A DNA stretch of 64,000 nucleotides. It comes from Chitinophagales bacterium. Its GTDB lineage: Bacteria; Bacteroidota; Bacteroidia; Chitinophagales; Chitinophagaceae. The notes under the pieces are model-generated. The model searched no databases. It saw nothing but the letters and a program-made list of their open reading frames with translations, and was not told where the DNA came from. Where the stretch lies: assembly GCA_015654695.1 (NCBI GenBank), contig JAATGJ010000156.1, positions 1 to 64,000 of the forward strand. The letters are read 5' to 3'. Within the stretch, counting starts at the first letter, position 1. Every line of letters begins with the position of its first letter. Made by a program: the position numbers and the translations under genes. This document shows, in pieces, positions 43,331 to 55,163 of this stretch.

Positions 43331-45910
43331 ATGCACGATCAACCAGCGATCTTTTCCCTGCTGCAACAATATATTCCGGCCCTTAGTTCTTACAACGAAT
43401 TATTCTCTGCTGATAATACTATAAGGCCTGACTGGCAAACTTTTTTCGCTTCACTTCATCAATTAGGATATAAAGAATTACAAAACCGTAATATTGATAT
43501 ACAGCGGCTACTGAAAGAAAATGGTGTAGCCTATAATATTTATAATGACCCCTCCGGGCAAACACGTCCCTGGGAACTTGATCCCATACCTCAATTAATA
43601 ACAGCTAATGAATGGGAAACCATCAATGCAGGTTTGATACAGCGTGCAGAATTGTTTGATCTTTTATTGAAAGATATTTACGGTCCGCAAACACTTATAA
43701 AAAATGGCATCATTCCACAGGAACTGATTTACCTGCATCCCGGCTTTATCCGGTCATGTGTAAATGTCAAATTACCCGGAACACAGCACCTGGTTTTATA
43801 TGCAGCGGATATGGCCCGTGGCAATGATGGTCGTTTATGGATCATCAGTGACCGTACGCAGGCGCCATCAGGTTCGGGTTATGCGCTGGAAAACAGGTTT
43901 GCAATGTCAAGTGTATTACCTGAATTATTTTCCAACCTCAATGTAAAGAGGTTATCACCTTACTTTGATTCACTGCAACAGGCATTGACGGATATAGCGC
44001 CGCATAATACGGATAATCCAAGAGTGGTCATACTCACACCGGGTCCTGATAACGAAACGTATTTTGAACATTCTTATCTCGCCGCTTATCTCGGACTTAC
44101 ATTAGTGCAGGGCAATGACCTGATGGTAAAAGATAATTATGTATGGCTAAAGACTATTGATGGTTTGGAAAAAGTGGATGTGCTGTTACGCAGGCTGGAT
44201 GACAGCTATTGCGATCCGCTGGAATTAAAAAGCGATTCACTGTTAGGCATTCCGGGCCTGGTGCAGGTAGTGAGAAAAGGAAATGTAGCTATTGCCAACC
44301 CGCTTGGAAGCAGTATAGTAGAAAGTGCAGGCCTTGTTCCTTTTTTACCTGCTATTGCCAAACATTTCTTTGGAAAGGAACTGATCATGCCGACCATCGC
44401 CACATGGTGGTGCGGTCAGCCCAAAGAAATGAATTATGTAATCGCTAATTTAAAAACGCTGGTAGTAAGAAAGATATTCAGGAATGTGGCCGGCACCCGT
44501 TCTGCTATTGATGGCGCTTCGCTGTCAGTAATACAGGCAGAAGAGTTGATACGACAAATAAAAGCCAGTCCCTACCTGTATGTCGGGCAGGAAAAAATTA
44601 ATTTCTCCTCCACACCTTCATGGGTGGATGGAAAAATTGAAGCGGGTCATTCGTTGTTCAGGAGTTTCCTGGTCAGCCATAACAACAGTTATATTGCCAT
44701 GCCCGGCGGCCTGACACGAACCAATACACAGAAAAATAGCTTCATTATCTCCAATCAGCTTGGAGGTATCAGTAAAGACACCTGGGTTCTTTCAGCGGAT
44801 GATGAACAGGAGCAAACGGTAAACCTCCAATTGACTACCGATACATTGCAGCATACAATACATAAGCGGTCACTCCCAAGCCATACTGCGGAGAATCTCT
44901 TCTGGGTAGGCCGCTATACGGAACGGGTTATTTATAACGCCCGGCTGCAGCGTACCGTAATGCAAAAGATGTTGCAAAGCAACAAACCATTTACTGCTGA
45001 TAGCGGGGGCACAGAATCTGTATTGCTTCATACATTAACACAGTGTACTTATACTTTTTCCGGCTTCTTTGAAGACAGCGATCCTGCGAAAAGAAAAGAT
45101 ATCTACGCGAAGCCATGGACAGAGTTAACCGATGTTTTATACAATGAAAAAAGAAACGGCAGTCTTAGTCATAATCTTTCTTTGTTGAAAAACGCCGTCT
45201 ATAGCGTCCGTAATTTCTGGGCGCTGGATACCTGGCGTGTACTGCGGCAGATGGAAGAGGAATGGAATAAAGCGAAAAAGGATAATACTACCGATCATCT
45301 GCGGATGATCAGCAGTATTGATGCATTGAATACTTCAATGTTTGCCTTCCTTGGAATGAACAGGGAAAGTGTTCGCAGGGAACAGGGATGGAATATCATG
45401 GATCTTGGCAGGAAACTGGAACAGGTGCTGTACATCATTACTTTATTAAGAAGCGTTTTTCAAAACAAACAGGAAGACCAGGTGGAGCATGAGTTGCTGG
45501 AGTCCGTCATGATCGCCAGCCAGAGCCTGATTACTTACCGTTATACTTACCGCGACCATTTGCAATTACCATTGGCGCTCGAATTGCTGATGCTGGATAC
45601 CAACTACCCGAAGTCACTGGCTTATTTAGTGAAAAAAATAAAACGCTATGTTTCGCTTTTGCCCAAGGAAGGAAAAGAAATACCGTTAAGCGATAAGCAA
45701 CGCAATATCCAGGAGGCTGACTCTTTATTAAAACTGGCGGATGTAGTAGCATTGGCAAAACATGACCCGTACACCGGGGAGTATGTTTCCCTGAATAAGT
45801 TTTTGGATAAATTATACTCGCTGATCGCCGATACTTCGATGGGTATCTCCAAAACGTATTTTAAACACAGCCAGACACAAAAACAATTATTTACAGCTAA
45901 CCTTATCTGA
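43331..45910 (+). CDS. circularly permuted type-2 ATP-grasp (DUF404/DUF407) fused to alpha-E domain (DUF403)
   Basis: 859 aa. The N-terminal roughly 480 aa carry CP ATP-grasp motifs, and the C-terminal roughly 330 aa form an alpha-helical alpha-E domain. This is the same architecture as the mycobacterial Rv2567-type fusion. Confidence 0.85.
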   Translation: MHDQPAIFSLLQQYIPALSSYNELFSADNTIRPDWQTFFASLHQLGYKELQNRNIDIQRLLKENGVAYNIYNDPSGQTRPWELDPIPQLITANEWETINAGLIQRAELFDLLLKDIYGPQTLIKNGIIPQELIYLHPGFIRSCVNVKLPGTQHLVLYAADMARGNDGRLWIISDRTQAPSGSGYALENRFAMSSVLPELFSNLNVKRLSPYFDSLQQALTDIAPHNTDNPRVVILTPGPDNETYFEHSYLAAYLGLTLVQGNDLMVKDNYVWLKTIDGLEKVDVLLRRLDDSYCDPLELKSDSLLGIPGLVQVVRKGNVAIANPLGSSIVESAGLVPFLPAIAKHFFGKELIMPTIATWWCGQPKEMNYVIANLKTLVVRKIFRNVAGTRSAIDGASLSVIQAEELIRQIKASPYLYVGQEKINFSSTPSWVDGKIEAGHSLFRSFLVSHNNSYIAMPGGLTRTNTQKNSFIISNQLGGISKDTWVLSADDEQEQTVNLQLTTDTLQHTIHKRSLPSHTAENLFWVGRYTERVIYNARLQRTVMQKMLQSNKPFTADSGGTESVLLHTLTQCTYTFSGFFEDSDPAKRKDIYAKPWTELTDVLYNEKRNGSLSHNLSLLKNAVYSVRNFWALDTWRVLRQMEEEWNKAKKDNTTDHLRMISSIDALNTSMFAFLGMNRESVRREQGWNIMDLGRKLEQVLYIITLLRSVFQNKQEDQVEHELLESVMIASQSLITYRYTYRDHLQLPLALELLMLDTNYPKSLAYLVKKIKRYVSLLPKEGKEIPLSDKQRNIQEADSLLKLADVVALAKHDPYTGEYVSLNKFLDKLYSLIADTSMGISKTYFKHSQTQKQLFTANLI

Positions 45911-45925
45911 TTTGAACATTGCACC

Positions 45926-46804
45926 ATGCTTTATTCTGTTGAACATACTACCAAATACCAATACCACGAGCAGGTGAGCCTTTGCCATAACATCGCCGTA
46001 CTAGCGCCGCGCAATACCGATAAACAAACCTGTAAAGCATTTAATATTATTATTTCACCGTTGCCGGAAGTACTGGAAGAACATGTGGACTTCTTTGGCA
46101 ACAAATTGTATTATTTTGTTATTGAACAGGAGCATGAAGAATTAACTGTCATTGTCAGATCACAGGTGGAAAAAACAATATCTCCTGGTGCACCGGCATC
46201 CTACCCTGCACAAAGCTGGGAAATGGTAAGAGATATGCTACTCGTTTCTACCGGGGAGTATATGGAGGAAAAGCAATTCACCCATCCTACGGAAATAACG
46301 GCTACCTCTCCTGAAATAAAAAACTATGCTGAAAAATCTTTTACAAAAGACAGAGCATTGTTTGAAGCCGTATATGATCTGGTAAAACGTATTTACACAG
46401 ATTTCAGTTTTACACCCGGTTTTACTACCATCTCTACTCCCCTTTCTGTTGTGATGAAAGAACGGAAAGGCGTTTGCCAGGATTTTGCTCATCTTGCCAT
46501 TTCCTGTATTCATTCTATGGGCCTGCCGGCAAGATATGTAAGCGGTTACCTGGAAACATTAGCGCCTGCAGGAAAAGAAAAGCTTACCGGTGTTGATGCA
46601 TCTCATGCATGGATATCGGTATTCATTCCCGGAATGGGCTGGGTGGACTTTGATCCTACCAATAATCAACTGGCTAATGAACAATATATCACTATCGGCT
46701 GGGGCCGTGATTATTTTGACATCATTCCACTCAAAGGAGTGATCATGAGCAGCAGTTCGCATGAATTGACGGTATCGGTAGATGTGAAAAGGATAGAAGA
46801 ATAA
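45926..46804 (+). CDS. transglutaminase-like cysteine protease family protein (Bact_transglu_N + TGase core)
   Basis: 292 aa. Catalytic Cys region GVCQDFAHL, with His and Asp downstream. It lies 16 nt after the ATP-grasp gene. Confidence 0.85.
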   Translation: MLYSVEHTTKYQYHEQVSLCHNIAVLAPRNTDKQTCKAFNIIISPLPEVLEEHVDFFGNKLYYFVIEQEHEELTVIVRSQVEKTISPGAPASYPAQSWEMVRDMLLVSTGEYMEEKQFTHPTEITATSPEIKNYAEKSFTKDRALFEAVYDLVKRIYTDFSFTPGFTTISTPLSVVMKERKGVCQDFAHLAISCIHSMGLPARYVSGYLETLAPAGKEKLTGVDASHAWISVFIPGMGWVDFDPTNNQLANEQYITIGWGRDYFDIIPLKGVIMSSSSHELTVSVDVKRIEE

Positions 46805-46913
46805 TATCTTGTACAGAATTTGAAACACAAAAGCACGAAGACACAGAGGCACAGAGATTTTTTATTGCTTTGTGTATTCGTGGCTCATATATATTAAACT
46901 AAGAACACTGCCT

Positions 46914-47306
46914 CTATTTTTTATTTCTCACTTTTTCTTTTTCTGACATTTGCTTCATCCTGTATTTTACCATTTTGCTGATCAATGCCAGGGGAAGTGG
47001 CTTACCCAAGGGAAACTTGGCTGTGCTTTTTGCTCCTGCATAAGGTGCAAGTTCCTTTTTGAATCCTTCAACTCCAACCGGCGCCGGATAAAAAGCGATA
47101 TGGCTTTTCCACGCGGCAAAAGAAACCAGGTTTCCATTCAATGTAAAGGTGGGAATTGCATATTTGATCGTTTCTTCCGCTTTGGGCGCCGACTTCCTGA
47201 TGGTAGCTCTTAACAGTTCCAGCATCTTTTGAATGTCTTTGGGGAAGCCGGCAATATATTCATTGATAGTTGCCGCCGGTTTACTTTTCATCGCCTTTGC
47301 CATCAT
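46914..47306 (-). CDS. DUF1801 (YdhG-like) domain protein
   Basis: 130 aa with the conserved ...AIPTF..NG.LV.FAA.K.H..FYP pattern. Confidence 0.75.
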   Translation of the reverse strand: MMAKAMKSKPAATINEYIAGFPKDIQKMLELLRATIRKSAPKAEETIKYAIPTFTLNGNLVSFAAWKSHIAFYPAPVGVEGFKKELAPYAGAKSTAKFPLGKPLPLALISKMVKYRMKQMSEKEKVRNKK

Positions 47307-47408
47307 TTATAGTTATTAATAGTTAAGGAATGATACAAATTTACATTCCCGTTCTAAGATGGATGCTATGTGAAAGCGACATTATAAGAGGTAGAATGCG
47401 GCAATTTC

Positions 47409-48491
47409 CTATTTTTTCTTCCGGATCGTTTCATGGATAAAAGTCAGCTTCTCCTTTACTGCTTCATTGATCACAAAGGGATAGGAATCTTTCATTCCCA
47501 TGGCACGGTTCAGGCTGTTCATCACGAAGGACAAAGGTATCCATCGCTCAAGGATGTCATCAATAGACTTAGCAGTATAAGGATCAATATTCAGCCGGGC
47601 ACTCATATCATTATCGGCATCGGCGGATCTTGGGTTTAGTGTCATACCAAATGAATAAGCGGTTTCCATTGTATCCACAATATGCATATAATGCGCCCAG
47701 GTCTCCGCCCAGTCTTCCCAGGGATGGGAACTGGCGTAAGCACTGATAAAACTCTCTTTCCATTCTTCTGACGCAGCTTTGCTGTAATGTTGTTTCAATG
47801 CTTCGGCATAATCGGTGGTTTCATCACCAAAAAGTTCCCGGAAGGGCTGTAGCCTTTTTGTATTATCTATCAACTGATCCCAGTAGTAATGCCCTATCTC
47901 GTGGCGAAAATGCCCCAATAGTGTTCGATACACTTCATCCATCTGGTTGCGGGCCATTTCACGGATAGCATCATCGGCTTCCGCTATATTGAGTGTGATC
48001 AGTCCATGATCATGGCCGGTCAGTAAACGTTTTTTCCCATCTTTATTTTCATCCGCCAGGAAATCGAAGGCAATTCCCTTGTTCTCATTCTCGGTTTTAC
48101 TGATGACAGGTAATTTGAAACGTAGCAAAGAATAAACGAGCCGGTGTTTGGCTATTTCAATGCGGGTCCATTTTTCCAGGTTATCCGGTTTGCTGAGATC
48201 AGGTATAGTGTGATTAAGCTCACAGGCAATACAAAATTCCGCTTCGCTGTCATGCGGGAGTAGCCAGTTGCATACATTGTATTGTTTATTGCTGCAGTAT
48301 TTATAGCGTGGCGTGGATGAAGTAATTTTTCCTTTGCTATCAAACAGGACATAACTATTGTCTTCCGCCGGTTGCAAGGCTACCAGGTCCATCCGCTGAG
48401 GATCAAAACCCAGGGAAGCATTGCATTGTACACAAAAGGTATTTTCAAAATAGACGGGCTGACCACAGTGGTCACATTTAAAAAGTTTCAT
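47409..48491 (-). CDS. zinc-ribbon-containing putative zinc metallopeptidase (HExxH)
   Basis: 360 aa. N-terminal CxxC..CxxC ribbon (CDHCGQ...CVQC) and an HEIGH zincin motif. Confidence 0.75.
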   Translation of the reverse strand: MKLFKCDHCGQPVYFENTFCVQCNASLGFDPQRMDLVALQPAEDNSYVLFDSKGKITSSTPRYKYCSNKQYNVCNWLLPHDSEAEFCIACELNHTIPDLSKPDNLEKWTRIEIAKHRLVYSLLRFKLPVISKTENENKGIAFDFLADENKDGKKRLLTGHDHGLITLNIAEADDAIREMARNQMDEVYRTLLGHFRHEIGHYYWDQLIDNTKRLQPFRELFGDETTDYAEALKQHYSKAASEEWKESFISAYASSHPWEDWAETWAHYMHIVDTMETAYSFGMTLNPRSADADNDMSARLNIDPYTAKSIDDILERWIPLSFVMNSLNRAMGMKDSYPFVINEAVKEKLTFIHETIRKKK

Positions 48492-48610
48492 TTGAGAAAT
48501 AGCTTGTTTGAAATTGTTTCTTGTTGCAAAGTAGTTAATTAATCAAGAAATGTGCCTGATAGGAAATGGCATGCGAATAATGTGAACTATGCCAAATGTA
48601 CTTCTAATAT

Positions 48611-48749
48611 CACCCTTTCGGGGTTAAGCCCCAGCTGGTTGCTACATATCTATAGTAATACCACCTCTTCGAGGTTTTAATCCTGAAAGGATGATATTAA
48701 TATAGTAAGTAAGTCATCAAAGATGTTGGGTTCCAAATCCCGAAGGGAT
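48611..48749. repeat. cluster of four short hairpins (5-bp stems, 3-5-nt loops)
   Basis: ACCCtttcgGGGT, ACCTCttcGAGGT, ATCCTgaaAGGAT and ATCCCgaaGGGAT, within about 140 bp. They sit between the zinc-peptidase gene start and the stop of the secreted 443-aa gene. Confidence 0.45.
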
Positions 48750-48807
48750 GGCATTGGATTTCTAAATGAATACTATTACAAATACACAAAGACCAGTAAA
48801 AAATAAC

Positions 48808-50139
48808 TTATTTAAAAAGAAAAGATAAATCTGTTAACGTATTATCTCTTTTAAAACAATATATATAAAGTCTATAAAAGGTTAAATCAGATTCTTTGCT
48901 CATGTCTTTTGTCAGGCCCACAATAGATACATCATTTACTAAATACTCAGACCCTGTTCTATTATCCTTAGTATTGTCGTACTTATACAACAACGATTTA
49001 GCCAATGATTGAACCTGTTTAAAATCAGAAACTTCATTTAGATAAAGCTTATAGGAAGTACTGTCGGTAAATTTTAAACTAACACCAAATAAAGTATCTT
49101 TAGAATCCTTATATGTATGAACGAAGAATGAAAGGCTATTAAATTTCATTGATCTTGATTCAGCTGTATCGGTTATTGTACGTGTCACAATTGTATCAGT
49201 ATTTGTACATTGACTTATGTCTATTTTGAAACAGGCTTTATCCAAGTCGGCAATTGGTATTTTACTATTTAATACGTAGTCATGAAAATTTTTAAATAAA
49301 GTTTCAAATGGATAATTAAACGTCCCATTGGCATTTGTTATCAAGAAATTATTTTTATTCCTAAAATAACTTACGAGATTGCTGTAGTTAGATATCAATG
49401 TATCCTGTAAGTCAATATCAGAAGAATACAGTATTAATGAATCCAACGCTTTAATTGCATCTGAATAATTGTATCTACGCTCTTCGAACGTAACCTTTAT
49501 AAGATACTTGTGATAAAAATTCAGCGGGTTTTTTACGTGGTTCAATCTATTTAGAACGCCATCATAGTTCTTTTCTTTTTCATACTTTTCAGTACTTGAA
49601 TATAAGTCTTCGAACTCTTCAGTAGCATCCAAATATTTTAAAGTTATATCATACCAATAGCTACTTTCTTCTGCAATGAATTCATTTACACCTTTATCCC
49701 CTCTAAGTACATCGAATATTCGATTGGCCTCTTTAACCTCATTCATATTCATTCTGAAAAGCCCTGTGAAAAAGAGTTTGTATTCGTAACCAAAATTGTC
49801 TACGATTCTGAAGTAGTTATATGAATCTTTTTTGTTTAGGTAAATAAATAATTTGCCATAGTCTGGTTTATAAGTGGCAGGCATTCTGGCATAGTAAGAG
49901 TTTGAAACTTTTAAATATGGATCTATCCAGCCCGGTTTTCCTGTGTAAGGGTTATAATTCCCTTTTGTTGAGTAGTTGTCAAACATGCTATTATTTGGCG
50001 TCGTTCTAAAATGGGGCTGAATATAAGTCCCATCATTTTTTAAATACCCATTAACGAAGACATCACTTTTCTGAGCAGATAAATTGTTAAGAAAAAAGCA
50101 GGTTATCAGTAAAAAAAAGGTTCTAAGCATTGCTGTCAT
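48808..50139 (-). CDS. secreted hypothetical protein (Asn/Tyr/Lys-rich, no recognisable domain)
   Basis: 443 aa with a Sec signal peptide. The coding sequence is strongly AT-rich relative to its neighbours. Confidence 0.6.
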   Translation of the reverse strand: MTAMLRTFFLLITCFFLNNLSAQKSDVFVNGYLKNDGTYIQPHFRTTPNNSMFDNYSTKGNYNPYTGKPGWIDPYLKVSNSYYARMPATYKPDYGKLFIYLNKKDSYNYFRIVDNFGYEYKLFFTGLFRMNMNEVKEANRIFDVLRGDKGVNEFIAEESSYWYDITLKYLDATEEFEDLYSSTEKYEKEKNYDGVLNRLNHVKNPLNFYHKYLIKVTFEERRYNYSDAIKALDSLILYSSDIDLQDTLISNYSNLVSYFRNKNNFLITNANGTFNYPFETLFKNFHDYVLNSKIPIADLDKACFKIDISQCTNTDTIVTRTITDTAESRSMKFNSLSFFVHTYKDSKDTLFGVSLKFTDSTSYKLYLNEVSDFKQVQSLAKSLLYKYDNTKDNRTGSEYLVNDVSIVGLTKDMSKESDLTFYRLYIYCFKRDNTLTDLSFLFK

Positions 50140-50293
50140 TTGAACGGGATTTTCTTATCCTGAAAATTATCAAGAAGGGCCTGTACACTTTTAATTACCT
50201 GCGCACCCCTAAGTTAATAAAGCCGAATACATTCACAATCCCCATATGAGATTCGTGGGCTATGAATTTGGCAATAATCTGATTTCTTTCCTT

Positions 50294-51226
50294 CTAAACA
50301 AATGATAAGTCATATTTCAAAAGAAGTCTATCATTTTTTTGAATAAATAGCAATTTGTTCATATCAACTATAGGCCTTACCCAAAGCCTATTTAATACTT
50401 TTTGCAATTCTTCTATGTCTTGATTCATTTGAAGTTCTCGAACAATAAAATCCCTATCAAAATTAGGTTGATTGCCTACAGAATTGCCTACTGTTCGCCA
50501 TTTTTTGTATTGCTGAATTTTTTCTTTTTTTGGTACATAACTTTTGCCATCGTGGGGAATGTAGGCAATTTGATAATTGTGAACTATCACATTTCTATAT
50601 TCTCTCACTAATCTTGAAATTCGCTTATATTCTTTCCAATCTGCAAATCCATGCAAATATTCATCAAGTATATTTTGCCTACTTGGCAATTTTATTGGAG
50701 GAGGTTTGCCTTTTGATAAATAATGTTCAAAAGCACTATCATAATATTTGTCATACCAGCCATCTGCAATTTTCAAAAAACCATCTTTAGTCAACTTTTG
50801 TAAAATGACTGTTTGCTGATTAGTGCATTCAAGAATAATAAAATATATTTTAGTCAAAAATTCCTCGACTGAATCACATACGCTCCCTAAATGAGTATAG
50901 AAGTTTTCAAAAAAAGAAATCTGTTTTTCTTCCAGTGCATTGTACGCATATAAGAAATTCAAAAAAATAGAGTAGTGGTAAGAACCAATCTCATGAAAAT
51001 CCGCTGACGTGTTTTCTCTGGGATCAATTTTAAGTTTGTCGTCATCATCAAATATTGAATTATCAAGCCTATTAGTAAAAGGGACGATAAAATTTTTCCA
51101 GAAGAACTCGCAATTTGGAAATGAGGTGGCTAAAATGTGTCCGAAGTTTTTCTCTTTAACATGTCCATGCTTTTTAAAGCTCGTATGAGATATTATTTCT
51201 TTGAGTTTAGATATTTCGATTTGCAT
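50294..51226 (-). CDS. hypothetical protein with HEPN-like Rx4H motif (candidate RNase)
   Basis: 310 aa and AT-rich. The C-terminal half is predicted all-helical and contains RLVREYRNVIVHN, that is R-N-x3-H, the hallmark spacing of HEPN active sites. Confidence 0.55.
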   Translation of the reverse strand: MQIEISKLKEIISHTSFKKHGHVKEKNFGHILATSFPNCEFFWKNFIVPFTNRLDNSIFDDDDKLKIDPRENTSADFHEIGSYHYSIFLNFLYAYNALEEKQISFFENFYTHLGSVCDSVEEFLTKIYFIILECTNQQTVILQKLTKDGFLKIADGWYDKYYDSAFEHYLSKGKPPPIKLPSRQNILDEYLHGFADWKEYKRISRLVREYRNVIVHNYQIAYIPHDGKSYVPKKEKIQQYKKWRTVGNSVGNQPNFDRDFIVRELQMNQDIEELQKVLNRLWVRPIVDMNKLLFIQKNDRLLLKYDLSFV

Positions 51227-51322
51227 ATAGTTTCATGTAATGAGTCGTAATAAAACTACTTTATATCATTAACACATCCAAATTAGACAGTCTAATAGGT
51301 TAGTAATATAAATAGTGGTATT

Positions 51323-51493
51323 GTGTTCCAGCGGAACACATCGTGGGTAAAAAAATCATACGGATATGAACGGCGGCGTTCCGTAGGAACGCATGGTGCT
51401 AATATTGAAAATGGATTGCACGAAACGTTCCGATGGAACGTTGGCTGGTTTCATTTGATACGGTTATACCCACGAGTTGTCCCGATGGGACAA
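51323..51493. repeat. ordered array of four GTTCC-N3-GGAAC hairpins about 50 bp apart, with an enclosing long-range stem; candidate structured ncRNA / leader
   Basis: GTGTTCCagcGGAACAC (51323-39), GCGTTCCgtaGGAACGC (51376-92), AACGTTCCgatGGAACGTT (51424-42) and TTGTCCCgatGGGACAA (51477-93). The flanking stem bases covary. CGTGGGTA (51343-50) pairs with TACCCACG (51468-75) and encloses hairpins 2 and 3. Confidence 0.5.
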
Positions 51494-51725: not shown

Positions 51726-54700
51726 TTAATCAACTCCCTTCTTCAACCGCAGATCCAGCGTACACGGAAATTCATTATTTATTTCCGGCGCCGGCGCATC
51801 ATACACAAAACTGCCACGGTTGTTTTCGATATAATGCTGCGTTACGGAGGATAGCACGGTTATAAAACGCGGTTCTTGTGTATGGCTGGTATTGCCAAAG
51901 CGGTTGATGCGGCGGCTTTCCGCTTCAAAACTGTTGATGGGGAACGTATCGTAACTTCTGCCGCCGGGGTGCGATACATAATACGTGCAACCACCAATGG
52001 AGCGGCCATTCCATGTATCTACAATATCAAAAGTGAGTGGCGTATCAACACCAATGGTGGGGTGCAATGCACTCGGCGGCTGCCAGGCCCGGTAACGGAT
52101 ACCGCAAACATATTCGCCTTTTACACTAGTGGCTGTAAGCGGAACGCGAACACCACCGCAGAGGAGAATATAGCGGTTGTCGTTGATACCGGATAGTTTT
52201 ACCTGCACCCTTTCTAAAGAACTGTCAACAAAACGTGCCGTGCCGGAGCTGCTCATTTCTTCGCCCAGTACATGCCAGGGCTCAATACCCATACGCAGTT
52301 CCATTTTAATATCTTTTACCGTAACCGAACCGTAATGCGGAAAACGAAATTCGAAAAATGGCTTGAACCAGTTGATGTCGAATGCATAACCGGCCATATT
52401 TAAATACTCTACCACATCAGCCATATCCTGCTGCACATAATGCGGCAGCAAATATTTATCGTACAGGCTGGTGCCCCAGCGTACCAGTTTATGCTTGTAT
52501 GGTTTTTTCCAGAATGTGGCTATCAATGCACGGATGAGCAACATTTGCAGCAAACTCATTTGCTTATGCGGTGGCATATCAAACGCCCGGAATTCTAAAA
52601 TGCCCAGCCTTCCTGCAGAAGAATCGGGAGAATATAATTTATCAATACATAATTCGGAGCGATGCGTATTACCCGTAATGTCAGTAAGCAAATGCCGGAA
52701 TATTCTGTCGGTAATCCAAAAAGGAATAAAGCCTTTTTCGGGCACCTGGCTAAAAGCAATTTCCATTTCATAAAGACGGTCTTCAAAACCTTCATCAAAA
52801 CGGGGGGCCTGGCTGGTAGGCCCGATAAAACTACCGGAAAACAAATACGATAAACCGGGATGGTGTTGCCAGAAAGTGATTAAACTCCGCAACAGATCAG
52901 GGCGGCGCAACAGCGGACTATCTGCCGGCTTTGCAGCACCAATGGTAATATGATTACCACCGCCAGTGCCGGTATGGCGTCCATCCAGCATAAACTTTTC
53001 GGTACCCAGTCGTGATAATCTTGCCTGTTCGTATAAAGTATCTGTATTGGCTAAAAGGTCCTTCCAGTTTTTTGCAGGGTGAATATTTACTTCTATCACG
53101 CCGGGGTCTGGTGATACTACCATACGTTCCACCCTGGTATCTCTTGGTGGTTCGTAGCCTTCGATACGCACCTGCATTTTTAATTTAGCTGCCGTGCTTT
53201 CGATACAGGCTACCATATCCAGGTAGTGTTCTATATAATCCATCGGCGGCAGAAAAATATAAATATGGCCATCCCGTACTTCCACACTTAATGCCATGCG
53301 GATGGTTTCAATCTCCCTGGTAATTTCTTCAGGCGGTTCTTTTTCTTTAGCCTTCTTTTTTTCAGCAGTTGCATTTCTCTTCTCGAACTTTTCTTTATTC
53401 TCCCCTGCTAATTTTGTTATCGGTTCTGTGTTTTTAAATACTTTTCCATAGCGCCACAATATCGCTTTATGAAAATCTTCCAGCTCAGGCAGCTCTTCAA
53501 ACAAACTGCGTTCTACTTTATACGGTATCCTGGCTTTGGGCACCACCGGCAACGAGTCCAACGGTAAGCGTAACCCTATGGGAGAATTACCGGGAACTAA
53601 AAAAAGATGCTCCCGGTTAAAGACCCATTTACAGCTCAACCATTTATCATCCCAGTAATTCCAGCGAAGTGGTATTACATAGCCCACAGGTTCATCCAGC
53701 CCCTGGTTAAGCAGCTGTGCTAACGTACGCCGCTCCAATGGGTCTTTTAAATTTGCTTTTAACGGATCAACATTGGCTGGATTTTTTCCTTCGGTCCATA
53801 AAAAATAAAATACATCTTCGTAAGCCGTGCTTATATTATCCAGGCTAACCGCTAAATGCCTGGCCAGTTCGTTAGTAAATGCTTTGGCATCTTTTATAGT
53901 GTATTTCTTTTTGGTTTTTTCGTGGGCGATCAGATCAAGGTTTTTCCAAACGGGAAAACCATCTTTCCGCCAGAACAAACCGTATTGCCATCTTGGTAAT
54001 GGTTCACCGGGATACCATTTACCCTGCCCGTAATGGATCAATCCACCGGGACCAAATTTATCTCTTAAGCGGAAAATAAGATCATGTGATAATTCTCTTT
54101 TTTCTTTTCCATCGGCAGCGGTATTCCATTGCGCCGATTCCATATCATCAATAGAAACAAAAGTAGGCTCTCCACCCATCGTCATGCGTACATCACCTGT
54201 TGCTAAATCTTCGTCCACCTGTTCGCCAATTGCATTTATTTCTATCCATTGCTGTTCGGTAAAGGGTTTGGTTACTCTTGGGTCTTCATAAATTCTTGTC
54301 ACCGAATTTTCAAATTCAAAAGTCACTTCGCACTTATCAGTAGCCCCCACTACTGGCGCGGCACTTGCATAATCGGGTGTACATGCCAGTGGTATATGTC
54401 CTTCGCCGGCAAATAAACCGGAAGTGGCATCTAAACCAATCCAGCCTGCGCCGGGAATATATACTTCTACCCAGGCATGCAAATCGGTAAAATCTTTTTC
54501 AGGGCCCGAGGGTCCATCCAATGATTTTTCATCAGAAGTTAACTGCACCAAATAACCGGATACGAAACGGGATGCCAACCCTAAATGCCGCAATACCTGT
54601 ACAAAAAGCCAGGCTGTATCCCTGCAGGAGCCCAGTGTTTTTTCCAGCGTTTCCTCAGGAGTTTGTACCCCCACTTCCATGCGGATGGAATAATTAATAT

Positions 54701-55163
54701 CCTTATTTATTTTTTGATTGAGGTACACCAAAAAATCATTGATCGTTTTTTTGCTCCTGTCAACACCCTTTAACCATTCCATTAGCCGGGGGCCGCTTTC
54801 TTTTATTTCCAGGTAAGGGATTAATTCTTTGGGTAATTCGCCACGATATTTAAAAGGGAAATTTTCGGCATATTCTTCTACAAAAAAATCAAAAGGATTG
54901 ATGCTGACTAAATTGGCAATTACTTCTACTTCTACTTTTAGCTGCGTAGTTCTTTCTGGAAATACGACACGGGCCTGGTAATTACCAAACGGGTCCTGCT
55001 GCCAGTTGATAAAATGATCTTTGGGTTCCACCTTAAAAGAATACGATTCAATGGGAGTTCGGGAATGCACGGCAGGACGAAGCCGGAAGACATGCGGGGA
55101 TAAAGCCACTAATCGGTCGTAAGTATAAACTGTCTTATGCCGGATCGCTACCCTTATAGCCAT
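51726..55163 (-). CDS. DUF2126 family large transglutaminase-like protein
   Basis: 1145 aa. It has an N-terminal Bact_transglu_N region, a TGase core and a long DUF2126 C-terminal region, the architecture of mycobacterial Rv2566. Confidence 0.85.
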   Translation of the reverse strand: MAIRVAIRHKTVYTYDRLVALSPHVFRLRPAVHSRTPIESYSFKVEPKDHFINWQQDPFGNYQARVVFPERTTQLKVEVEVIANLVSINPFDFFVEEYAENFPFKYRGELPKELIPYLEIKESGPRLMEWLKGVDRSKKTINDFLVYLNQKINKDINYSIRMEVGVQTPEETLEKTLGSCRDTAWLFVQVLRHLGLASRFVSGYLVQLTSDEKSLDGPSGPEKDFTDLHAWVEVYIPGAGWIGLDATSGLFAGEGHIPLACTPDYASAAPVVGATDKCEVTFEFENSVTRIYEDPRVTKPFTEQQWIEINAIGEQVDEDLATGDVRMTMGGEPTFVSIDDMESAQWNTAADGKEKRELSHDLIFRLRDKFGPGGLIHYGQGKWYPGEPLPRWQYGLFWRKDGFPVWKNLDLIAHEKTKKKYTIKDAKAFTNELARHLAVSLDNISTAYEDVFYFLWTEGKNPANVDPLKANLKDPLERRTLAQLLNQGLDEPVGYVIPLRWNYWDDKWLSCKWVFNREHLFLVPGNSPIGLRLPLDSLPVVPKARIPYKVERSLFEELPELEDFHKAILWRYGKVFKNTEPITKLAGENKEKFEKRNATAEKKKAKEKEPPEEITREIETIRMALSVEVRDGHIYIFLPPMDYIEHYLDMVACIESTAAKLKMQVRIEGYEPPRDTRVERMVVSPDPGVIEVNIHPAKNWKDLLANTDTLYEQARLSRLGTEKFMLDGRHTGTGGGNHITIGAAKPADSPLLRRPDLLRSLITFWQHHPGLSYLFSGSFIGPTSQAPRFDEGFEDRLYEMEIAFSQVPEKGFIPFWITDRIFRHLLTDITGNTHRSELCIDKLYSPDSSAGRLGILEFRAFDMPPHKQMSLLQMLLIRALIATFWKKPYKHKLVRWGTSLYDKYLLPHYVQQDMADVVEYLNMAGYAFDINWFKPFFEFRFPHYGSVTVKDIKMELRMGIEPWHVLGEEMSSSGTARFVDSSLERVQVKLSGINDNRYILLCGGVRVPLTATSVKGEYVCGIRYRAWQPPSALHPTIGVDTPLTFDIVDTWNGRSIGGCTYYVSHPGGRSYDTFPINSFEAESRRINRFGNTSHTQEPRFITVLSSVTQHYIENNRGSFVYDAPAPEINNEFPCTLDLRLKKGVD

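Follow-up and report, generated by a model that had tools for sequence, protein, structure and literature searches.

An unannotated family of ~310-residue proteins with a conserved R-N-x3-H motif: candidate standalone HEPN-like endoribonucleases

The 64,000-nucleotide (nt) stretch of a Chitinophagales bacterium analyzed here (positions 1 to 64,000 of contig JAATGJ010000156.1, hereafter the window) carries a minus-strand gene for a protein of 310 amino acids (aa), with an R-N-x3-H motif of the kind found in HEPN ribonucleases. The gene belongs to a widespread protein family, and the family is considered here as a candidate group of single-gene nucleases. The parts of the gene and the island that holds it are as follows.

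50294..51226, minus strand: open reading frame, 310 aa plus stop codon, intact; belongs to an unannotated family of proteins about 310 aa long
51005..51226, minus strand: N-terminal module, residues 1-74, a loop and short helices, delimited by conservation and secondary structure
50579..51004, minus strand: predicted up-down bundle of long helices 75-100, 105-135, 147-172 and 195-216
50579..50596, minus strand: R211-N212-V-I-V-H216, candidate catalytic Rx4H motif, closing helix 195-216 at its C-terminus
50441..50578, minus strand: post-motif insert, residues 217-262, with beta-hairpin 223-232, three short helices and strand 260-262 in the AlphaFold2 model
50297..50440, minus strand: C-terminal helices 263-295 (candidate HEPN helix 4) and a tail, 299-305, in the AlphaFold2 model
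48500..51300, no strand: AT-rich island of about 2.8 kb, recognized by base composition, holding the 310-aa gene and the gene of a 443-aa secreted protein

An unannotated protein family

The reading frame and its RNVIVH motif (residues 211-216, within the string RLVREYRNVIVHNY of the 310-aa protein) had been pointed out in an initial annotation made from the sequence alone, and both are real and intact. The start codon is credible because homologues align with the N-terminus from residue 1. The initial annotation also regarded the protein as an orphan, which is no longer tenable. A word-indexed search at E<=1e-3 returned 151 homologues, mostly full-length (300-320 aa) and 38-58% identical, and an exhaustive search of 1.84 billion representatives returned 394 representatives of 50%-identity clusters at E<=1e-3, with 222 of them at E<=1e-10. 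Matches in reference genomes come from Chitinophagaceae, Ferruginibacter, Niastella, Sphingobacteriales, Crocinitomicaceae, Bryobacterales, Planctomycetota, Chloroflexi, a Nealsonbacteria genome of the candidate phyla radiation (CPR) and a Methanocellales archaeon. The family thereby covers Bacteroidota, Acidobacteriota, Planctomycetota, Chloroflexi, CPR bacteria and one archaeon, and its spread is sporadic.

The absence of a recognizable family signature, also claimed at the outset, was borne out, as the 310-aa protein has no significant match in Pfam, PADLOC, NCBIfam, PDB sequences or PHROGs, and a profile search of PDB sequences gave only spurious GCN4 coiled-coil matches. None of the listed family proteins carries a precomputed Pfam domain. 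An alignment of distant members (A3) used as a profile retrieved only the same family, with no bridge to annotated families and no Pfam domains. Domain scans detected no DNA-binding or interaction domain, and no nucleoside triphosphatase (NTPase) domain in the query or in longer members. The longer members contain no fused domains, only low-complexity tails and one zinc ribbon: the C-terminal ~30 residues of P0128 (442 aa) form a CxxC...CxxC zinc-ribbon-like tail, and P0106, P0115, P0120, P0133 and P0137 have S/G/T-rich low-complexity C-terminal extensions. A further member, P0126, has an insert of about 100 residues within the 51-74 loop. The picture is one of an unannotated family under purifying selection across phyla.

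The R-N-x3-H motif and the predicted fold

Conservation was measured in two sets, 118 close homologues and 62 distant representatives with 22-47% identity. H216 is present in all sequences of both sets (118/118 and 62/62, or 180/180), R211 in 118/118 and 60/62 (178/180), and N212 in 118/118 and 59/62 (177/180); nearly all full-length representatives carry R-N-x3-H, down to about 25% identity. It is the most conserved signature of the family. The motif alone is not beyond chance, as R[NHQD]xxxH arises in 9% of shuffles of the 310-aa sequence and is present in six of the 50 window open reading frames of at least 150 aa. Its significance therefore comes only from conservation among homologues, not from occurrence in a single sequence. 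The proposal of a HEPN ribonuclease in the initial annotation hinged on conservation of R and H, and with both residues (near-)invariant the proposal survives.

Conserved residues also lie outside the motif. Invariant across the 118 close homologues are G21, E25, F36, E40, W43, R53, F106, F109, Y110, R211, N212, H216, P232 and W282. Also conserved in the distant set are G21, D22, E25, E40, W43, P49, T51, R53, R70, Y85, D118, E121, R208, P232, K233, Y240, D259, F260 and N279. E25 is no less invariant than H216, the distant set included; E40 never varies among the close homologues and reaches 94% in the distant ones. The most conserved polar residues of the family fall in the N-terminal module (G21, D/H22, E25, E40, W43, P49, T51, R53, R70). 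The bundle segment includes a conserved S104-x-F-E107-x-F-Y-x-H112 motif together with D118/E121, the post-motif insert has conserved V231-P232-K233, Y240 and D259-F260, and the C-terminal part conserved Q266, M267, D270, N279 and W282.

The residue after the R of HEPN motifs is usually N, D or H (PMC3710099), and the family motif agrees with this pattern, with a conserved Rx4-6H and a polar residue (N/D/H) directly after R. HEPN domains have a conserved acidic residue (Ex3[KR]) in helix 2, close to the motif. Helix 105-135, which may or may not be the counterpart of that helix, holds near-invariant D118 and E121 and, in the query, E122-x3-K126, with E107 at its start. For helix packing, mean-field direct coupling analysis (230 sequences, effective number 193) gave top couplings that are indel and terminal-gap artefacts.

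AlphaFold2 models have a predicted local distance difference test (pLDDT) score of 91.9 and 93.0; the one built with the 118-sequence alignment (pLDDT 91.9) has a predicted template modeling (pTM) score of 0.88. The protein is thus confidently predicted to be an up-down helical bundle. Short N-terminal helices (5-50) precede the long helices A (75-100), B (105-135), C (147-172) and D (195-216), and after helix D come the beta-hairpin 223-232, three short helices, strand 260-262 and helices E/F (263-295). In the model the motif makes up the last six residues of helix D, and a loop, the beta/alpha insert and the antiparallel helix 263-295 follow. The motif had been placed in the middle of a helix and sits at its C-terminal end instead, while the helical bundle on which the initial annotation also depended is there in the confident model, where the motif closes a core helix. 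HEPN motifs are located where helix 3 ends and the loop to helix 4 begins, and inter-helix inserts are common among HEPN domains (PMC3710099). The predicted D-E hairpin, with the motif ending its first helix, agrees with this description in secondary structure and topology only. Structural alignments to gp41-5 cover 147 and 108 residues and point to a simple up-down meander; B-C-D-E would then be the helix mapping that gives the canonical motif placement. Taken as a model, the fold is compatible with HEPN and not diagnostic against generic four-helix bundles.

Links to annotated HEPN families were sought by scanning every member singly against Pfam at E<=1 (118 close and 62 distant). Sub-threshold matches were found to HEPN_Cthe2314 in 4/118 close and 2/62 distant members, to HEPN_Swt1 in four close and two distant members, to HEPN_Apea in two members and to Csx1_HEPN in one. 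The matches (best E values: PF18730, 0.008; PF18731, 0.054; PF18739, 0.078; PF09455, 0.06) all fall short of the curated cut-offs. Noise families match members at similar counts, and the HEPN-clan models are the only functionally coherent ones among the weak matches. Those alignments that were inspected (P0221 against Apea and Csx1, P0253 against Apea) stop at the motif histidine or one residue beyond it, with residues 125-212 of P0221 and 132-203 of P0253 aligned to Apea profile positions 22-97. These sub-threshold alignments are coherent but depend on the motif itself. Family consensus sequences matched only noise in Pfam. Profile-profile comparison covered two HEPN families, HepT and RnlA. 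The HepT profile (59 sequences) was built from the bona fide HepT gene at homologue locus L151, and the best local hhalign match to it is motif-on-motif, pairing R211/N212/H216/Y218 with R74/N75/H79/Y81. A permissive extension is collinear (helix 115-132 to HepT H1, 141-152 to the H1/H2 junction, 197-218 to H3) but added no score and was not used as evidence. By these sequence comparisons, homology to HEPN families is not established at the profile level.

Genomic context and the upstream hairpin array

The gene is solitary. It lies here in an AT-rich island and elsewhere often beside restriction-modification (Type I or IIG), other defence, toxin-antitoxin, integrase or transposase genes. Neighbors of the homologues were annotated with PADLOC and Pfam, and their context is rich in defence and mobile elements. 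Restriction-modification genes adjoin the family gene at some loci: a DUF262-type nuclease gene and then HsdM-HsdS-HsdR lie directly downstream at L013, HsdM-HsdS and a KAP NTPase lie upstream at L022/L026 (one locus), and at L023 the gene of a 1,119-aa Type IIG/DrmMI-like enzyme ends 4 nt upstream. Most family members do not adjoin such genes. Other loci have an AbiL/OLD-like ATPase (L021), a Metallophos-STAND NTPase (L008), NERD proteins and integrases (L012), an integrase immediately upstream (L014 and L148), an HNH nuclease 14 nt upstream within an integrative element (L149), a RES-Xre toxin-antitoxin pair (L150), HicB (L009), or IS481 copies with MNT-HepT and HigBA (L151). An all-against-all comparison of neighbors in 19 loci revealed no conserved partner gene, and only tyrosine recombinases recur.

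Two of these loci deserve a comment of their own. In L149 (6033-7936) the HNH_5 nuclease gene (317 aa) is on the same strand as the family gene, and the pair may form a nuclease cassette in this lineage; besides these two genes the integrative element has an integrase, an AAA_25/DnaB-like gene, RadC and DUF6876. The contigs L022 (1-4910) and L026 (2972-7893), both from one Bryobacterales metagenome-assembled genome, are 96.8% identical over 4.9 kb and share HsdS, the KAP NTPase, the family gene and DUF1828, and differ by frameshifts in the family gene. Two paralogous loci were rejected on the grounds of this identity and the frameshift differences, and the contigs are probably one locus assembled twice with sequencing errors.

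In the window the change in base composition at the island is sharp (GC ~0.30 vs. ~0.43 in the flanks). Judged by the Pfam domains of the flanks, the island sits between Peptidase_Mx and DUF2126 genes and splits an amidoligase/transglutaminase cluster. The interrupted cluster, a conserved one of amidoligase type (43331-48491 and 51726-55163), consists of CP_ATPgrasp_2 plus Alpha-E, transglutaminase, DUF1801, zinc-ribbon Peptidase_Mx, the island, and a DUF2126-transglutaminase of 1,145 aa, after which comes fmt. The 443-aa protein (48808-50139, minus strand) has a signal peptide and no Pfam domain and is unrelated to the 310-aa family; its residues 8-71 match phrog_29674, of unknown function (E 1.8e-12), and it does not co-occur with the family at other loci.

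Between 51322 and 51494, 100-270 nt upstream of the start codon, lies an array of three GTTCC-N3-GGAAC hairpins and one compensated GTCCC-GAT-GGGAC hairpin, each of 7-8 base pairs and with a period of 49-53 nt. The array as a whole is dyad-symmetric (arms 51324-51352 and 51464-51492). No hairpin cluster in the window is denser, no second copy occurs there, its folding is much stronger than that of shuffles (z = -5.0), and Rfam has no match to it. The initial annotation was correct that the array exists upstream, and its association of the array with the gene did not hold up. Such hairpins precede the family gene at none of 18 homologue loci, and at least 120 metagenome contigs, none of them encoding a family member, carry the same hairpin-pair element, at a sharp 48-53-nt period and in arrays of up to 21 copies. 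Because it is missing at the homologues and widespread without the family, the array is unlinked to the gene family; it is an independent, widespread repeat element, not an antitoxin RNA of the 310-aa gene. Tandem units measure about 223 nt in L107 and about 50 nt in L134. The element is a REP/MITE-like (repetitive extragenic palindromic or miniature inverted-repeat transposable element) or structured-RNA repeat. On the other flank of the island (48600-48760) there are small GC-rich hairpins, ACCTC.TTC.GAGGT at 48663 and ATCCC.GAA.GGGAT at 48737, with imperfect ones close to 48613 and 48681. They may delimit the island or represent additional repeat elements.

Competing explanations and comparison with known systems

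We consider it rather probable that the family belongs to the HEPN superfamily. The fuller reading, an unannotated, horizontally mobile family of standalone HEPN-like endoribonucleases acting as a single-gene toxin or abortive-infection-type defence effector, has about an even chance of being correct. Conservation of the motif, its canonical position and the defence context argue for the ribonuclease first proposed, while the fold is non-discriminating and no HEPN profile match is significant. Also in its favor are the many solved HEPN domains among the nearest structural neighbors, the recurring sub-threshold matches to four HEPN-clan families, the motif-on-motif HepT segment, the lack of a conserved partner in 19 loci, the sporadic spread and the AT-rich island. 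Several further results weigh against this reading. No HEPN Pfam model reaches threshold in any family scan, hhalign against the HepT profile gives an insignificant probability of 0.6-1.2%, and against the single sequence of E. coli RnlA an uninformative 1.4%. Foldseek, the structural check that had been suggested, gave no significant match against the PDB (E>=0.33). The HEPN structural matches are no better than those to generic bundles and mostly rely on helix 75-100. Many acidic residues are invariant (E25, E40, D118, E121, D259), which the metal-independent HEPN chemistry does not need. As to context, no defence gene adjoins the 310-aa gene in the window itself according to Pfam annotation of the flanks, the family was not detected in plasmid, phage-record or IMG/VR viral collections, and the ~14/21 non-redundant loci with at least one defence or mobile feature are a raw count without a background rate.

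The large conserved polar set outside the motif, with E25 as invariant as H216, could be explained by a non-HEPN all-alpha enzyme associated with defence or mobile elements, in which RNxxxH is convergent or has a different role. The active site of such an enzyme, e.g., a metal-dependent nuclease or phosphoesterase, would mainly consist of D22/E25/E40/R53/R70/D118/E121/D259 plus H216. The generic quality of the HEPN structural matches and the lack of a significant profile link to any HEPN family also favor this chief rival, which we nevertheless regard as unlikely. Searches linked the protein to no family of metal-dependent nucleases or phosphohydrolases; N/R/K can stand in for H84 and H112, so that a conserved His-rich metal site is lacking; the motif keeps the HEPN form exactly (R, N, x3, H) at the canonical helix end; and the coherent weak Pfam matches come from HEPN-clan models only. 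Many HEPN-fold proteins are themselves non-catalytic (PMC3710099), and the conserved residues could thus serve binding or folding in a helical-bundle regulator, adaptor or immunity protein tied to restriction-modification or mobile elements. That the protein is non-catalytic seems distinctly improbable, since an invariant H with R/N in the catalytic pattern and about 12 near-invariant charged residues across phyla are more enzyme-like, non-catalytic HEPN domains have usually lost the motif (PMC3710099), and no DNA-binding or interaction domain was found. The possibility implied by the initial annotation, a type III-like toxin-antitoxin system in which the array would be a repetitive antitoxin RNA processed by the nuclease, draws on the four well-folding hairpins spaced at ~50 nt just upstream of the gene. 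It has a very slight probability given the 18 homologue loci and the hairpin-element contigs described above, and in the array the stems alone repeat, whereas ToxI repeats the full unit.

For a standalone HEPN-like endoribonuclease, catalysis, dimerization and trigger are inferred from known HEPN enzymes. Two protomers would dimerize with their RNxxxH motifs facing each other, H216 would activate the ribose 2'-OH while R211/N212 stabilize the transition state, and RNA (tRNA, mRNA or rRNA) would be cut without metal to leave a 2',3'-cyclic phosphate (PMC3710099; PMC13043305). By the same analogy, the enzyme may stay latent until a trigger such as a phage protein or the loss of a companion restriction system. 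Sensing or substrate recognition would likely fall to the conserved N-terminal module (E25, E40, R53, R70) and the post-motif insert. More speculatively, and doubtful at present, the family may be a single-gene immune effector with a built-in sensor, guarding restriction-modification or integrative elements in a PrrC-like manner without an ATPase or antitoxin, or else a new all-alpha nuclease fold converged on RNxxxH. The built-in sensor would then be the invariant N-terminal acidic/basic module together with the post-motif beta/alpha insert.

If confirmed, the family would be a defined and searchable addition to the catalogue of standalone HEPN ribonucleases, with ~400 clusters at 50% identity in bacteria and archaea. 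It has no Pfam, NCBIfam, PADLOC or PHROGs model. Confirmation would also help to annotate the defence islands of Bacteroidota and other environmental phyla, in which present defence-finding models are blind to it. Partner-less HEPN effectors such as HepS are of current interest because one polypeptide must both sense infection and kill (PMC13043305), and the N-terminal module and post-motif insert are concrete candidates for the sensing part.

Among known systems, type III toxin-antitoxin (ToxIN-like) loci differ from the 310-aa family in their conserved upstream tandem-repeat antitoxin RNA; the hairpin array is missing upstream of the family gene at 18 homologue loci. HepT of the HepT/MntA pair (type VII toxin-antitoxin; PF01934) is also distinct: the 310-aa protein is ~2.7 times longer, none of 19 loci has an adjacent MNT antitoxin, the profile-profile probability is at most 1.2%, and the sole MNT-HepT pair seen (L151) is a separate module ~1 kb from the family gene. 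Proteins of the Abi2 clade (AbiD/AbiF, PF07751), Swt1-like proteins (PF18731) and Cthe_2314-like proteins (PF18730) are likewise standalone, about 300 aa long and marked by a conserved Rx4-6H, and they often occur in or beside restriction-modification operons (PMC3710099 Table 1). In the 310-aa family, weak Pfam signals recur only for PF18730 and PF18731, all short of the curated cut-offs; Abi_2 (PF07751) gave no Pfam match at E<=10, and the PADLOC Abi models were also blank. HepS, the "HEPN Solo" abortive-infection protein of the Salmonella Gifsy-1 prophage, belongs to a family delimited at 250 aa or less and encoded by prophages (PMC13043305), a description that sets the 310-aa family apart. 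Unlike HepS, the latter has ~310 aa, a conserved 74-residue N-terminal module and a 46-residue post-motif insert, and was not found on viral contigs or phage records. The anticodon nucleases PrrC/RloC are HEPN ribonucleases located inside Type I restriction-modification loci, which hold them latent. They carry an N-terminal ABC-type ATPase, whereas the 310-aa family has no NTPase domain; a PrrC-like placement is seen at two homologue loci, L013 and L022/L026.
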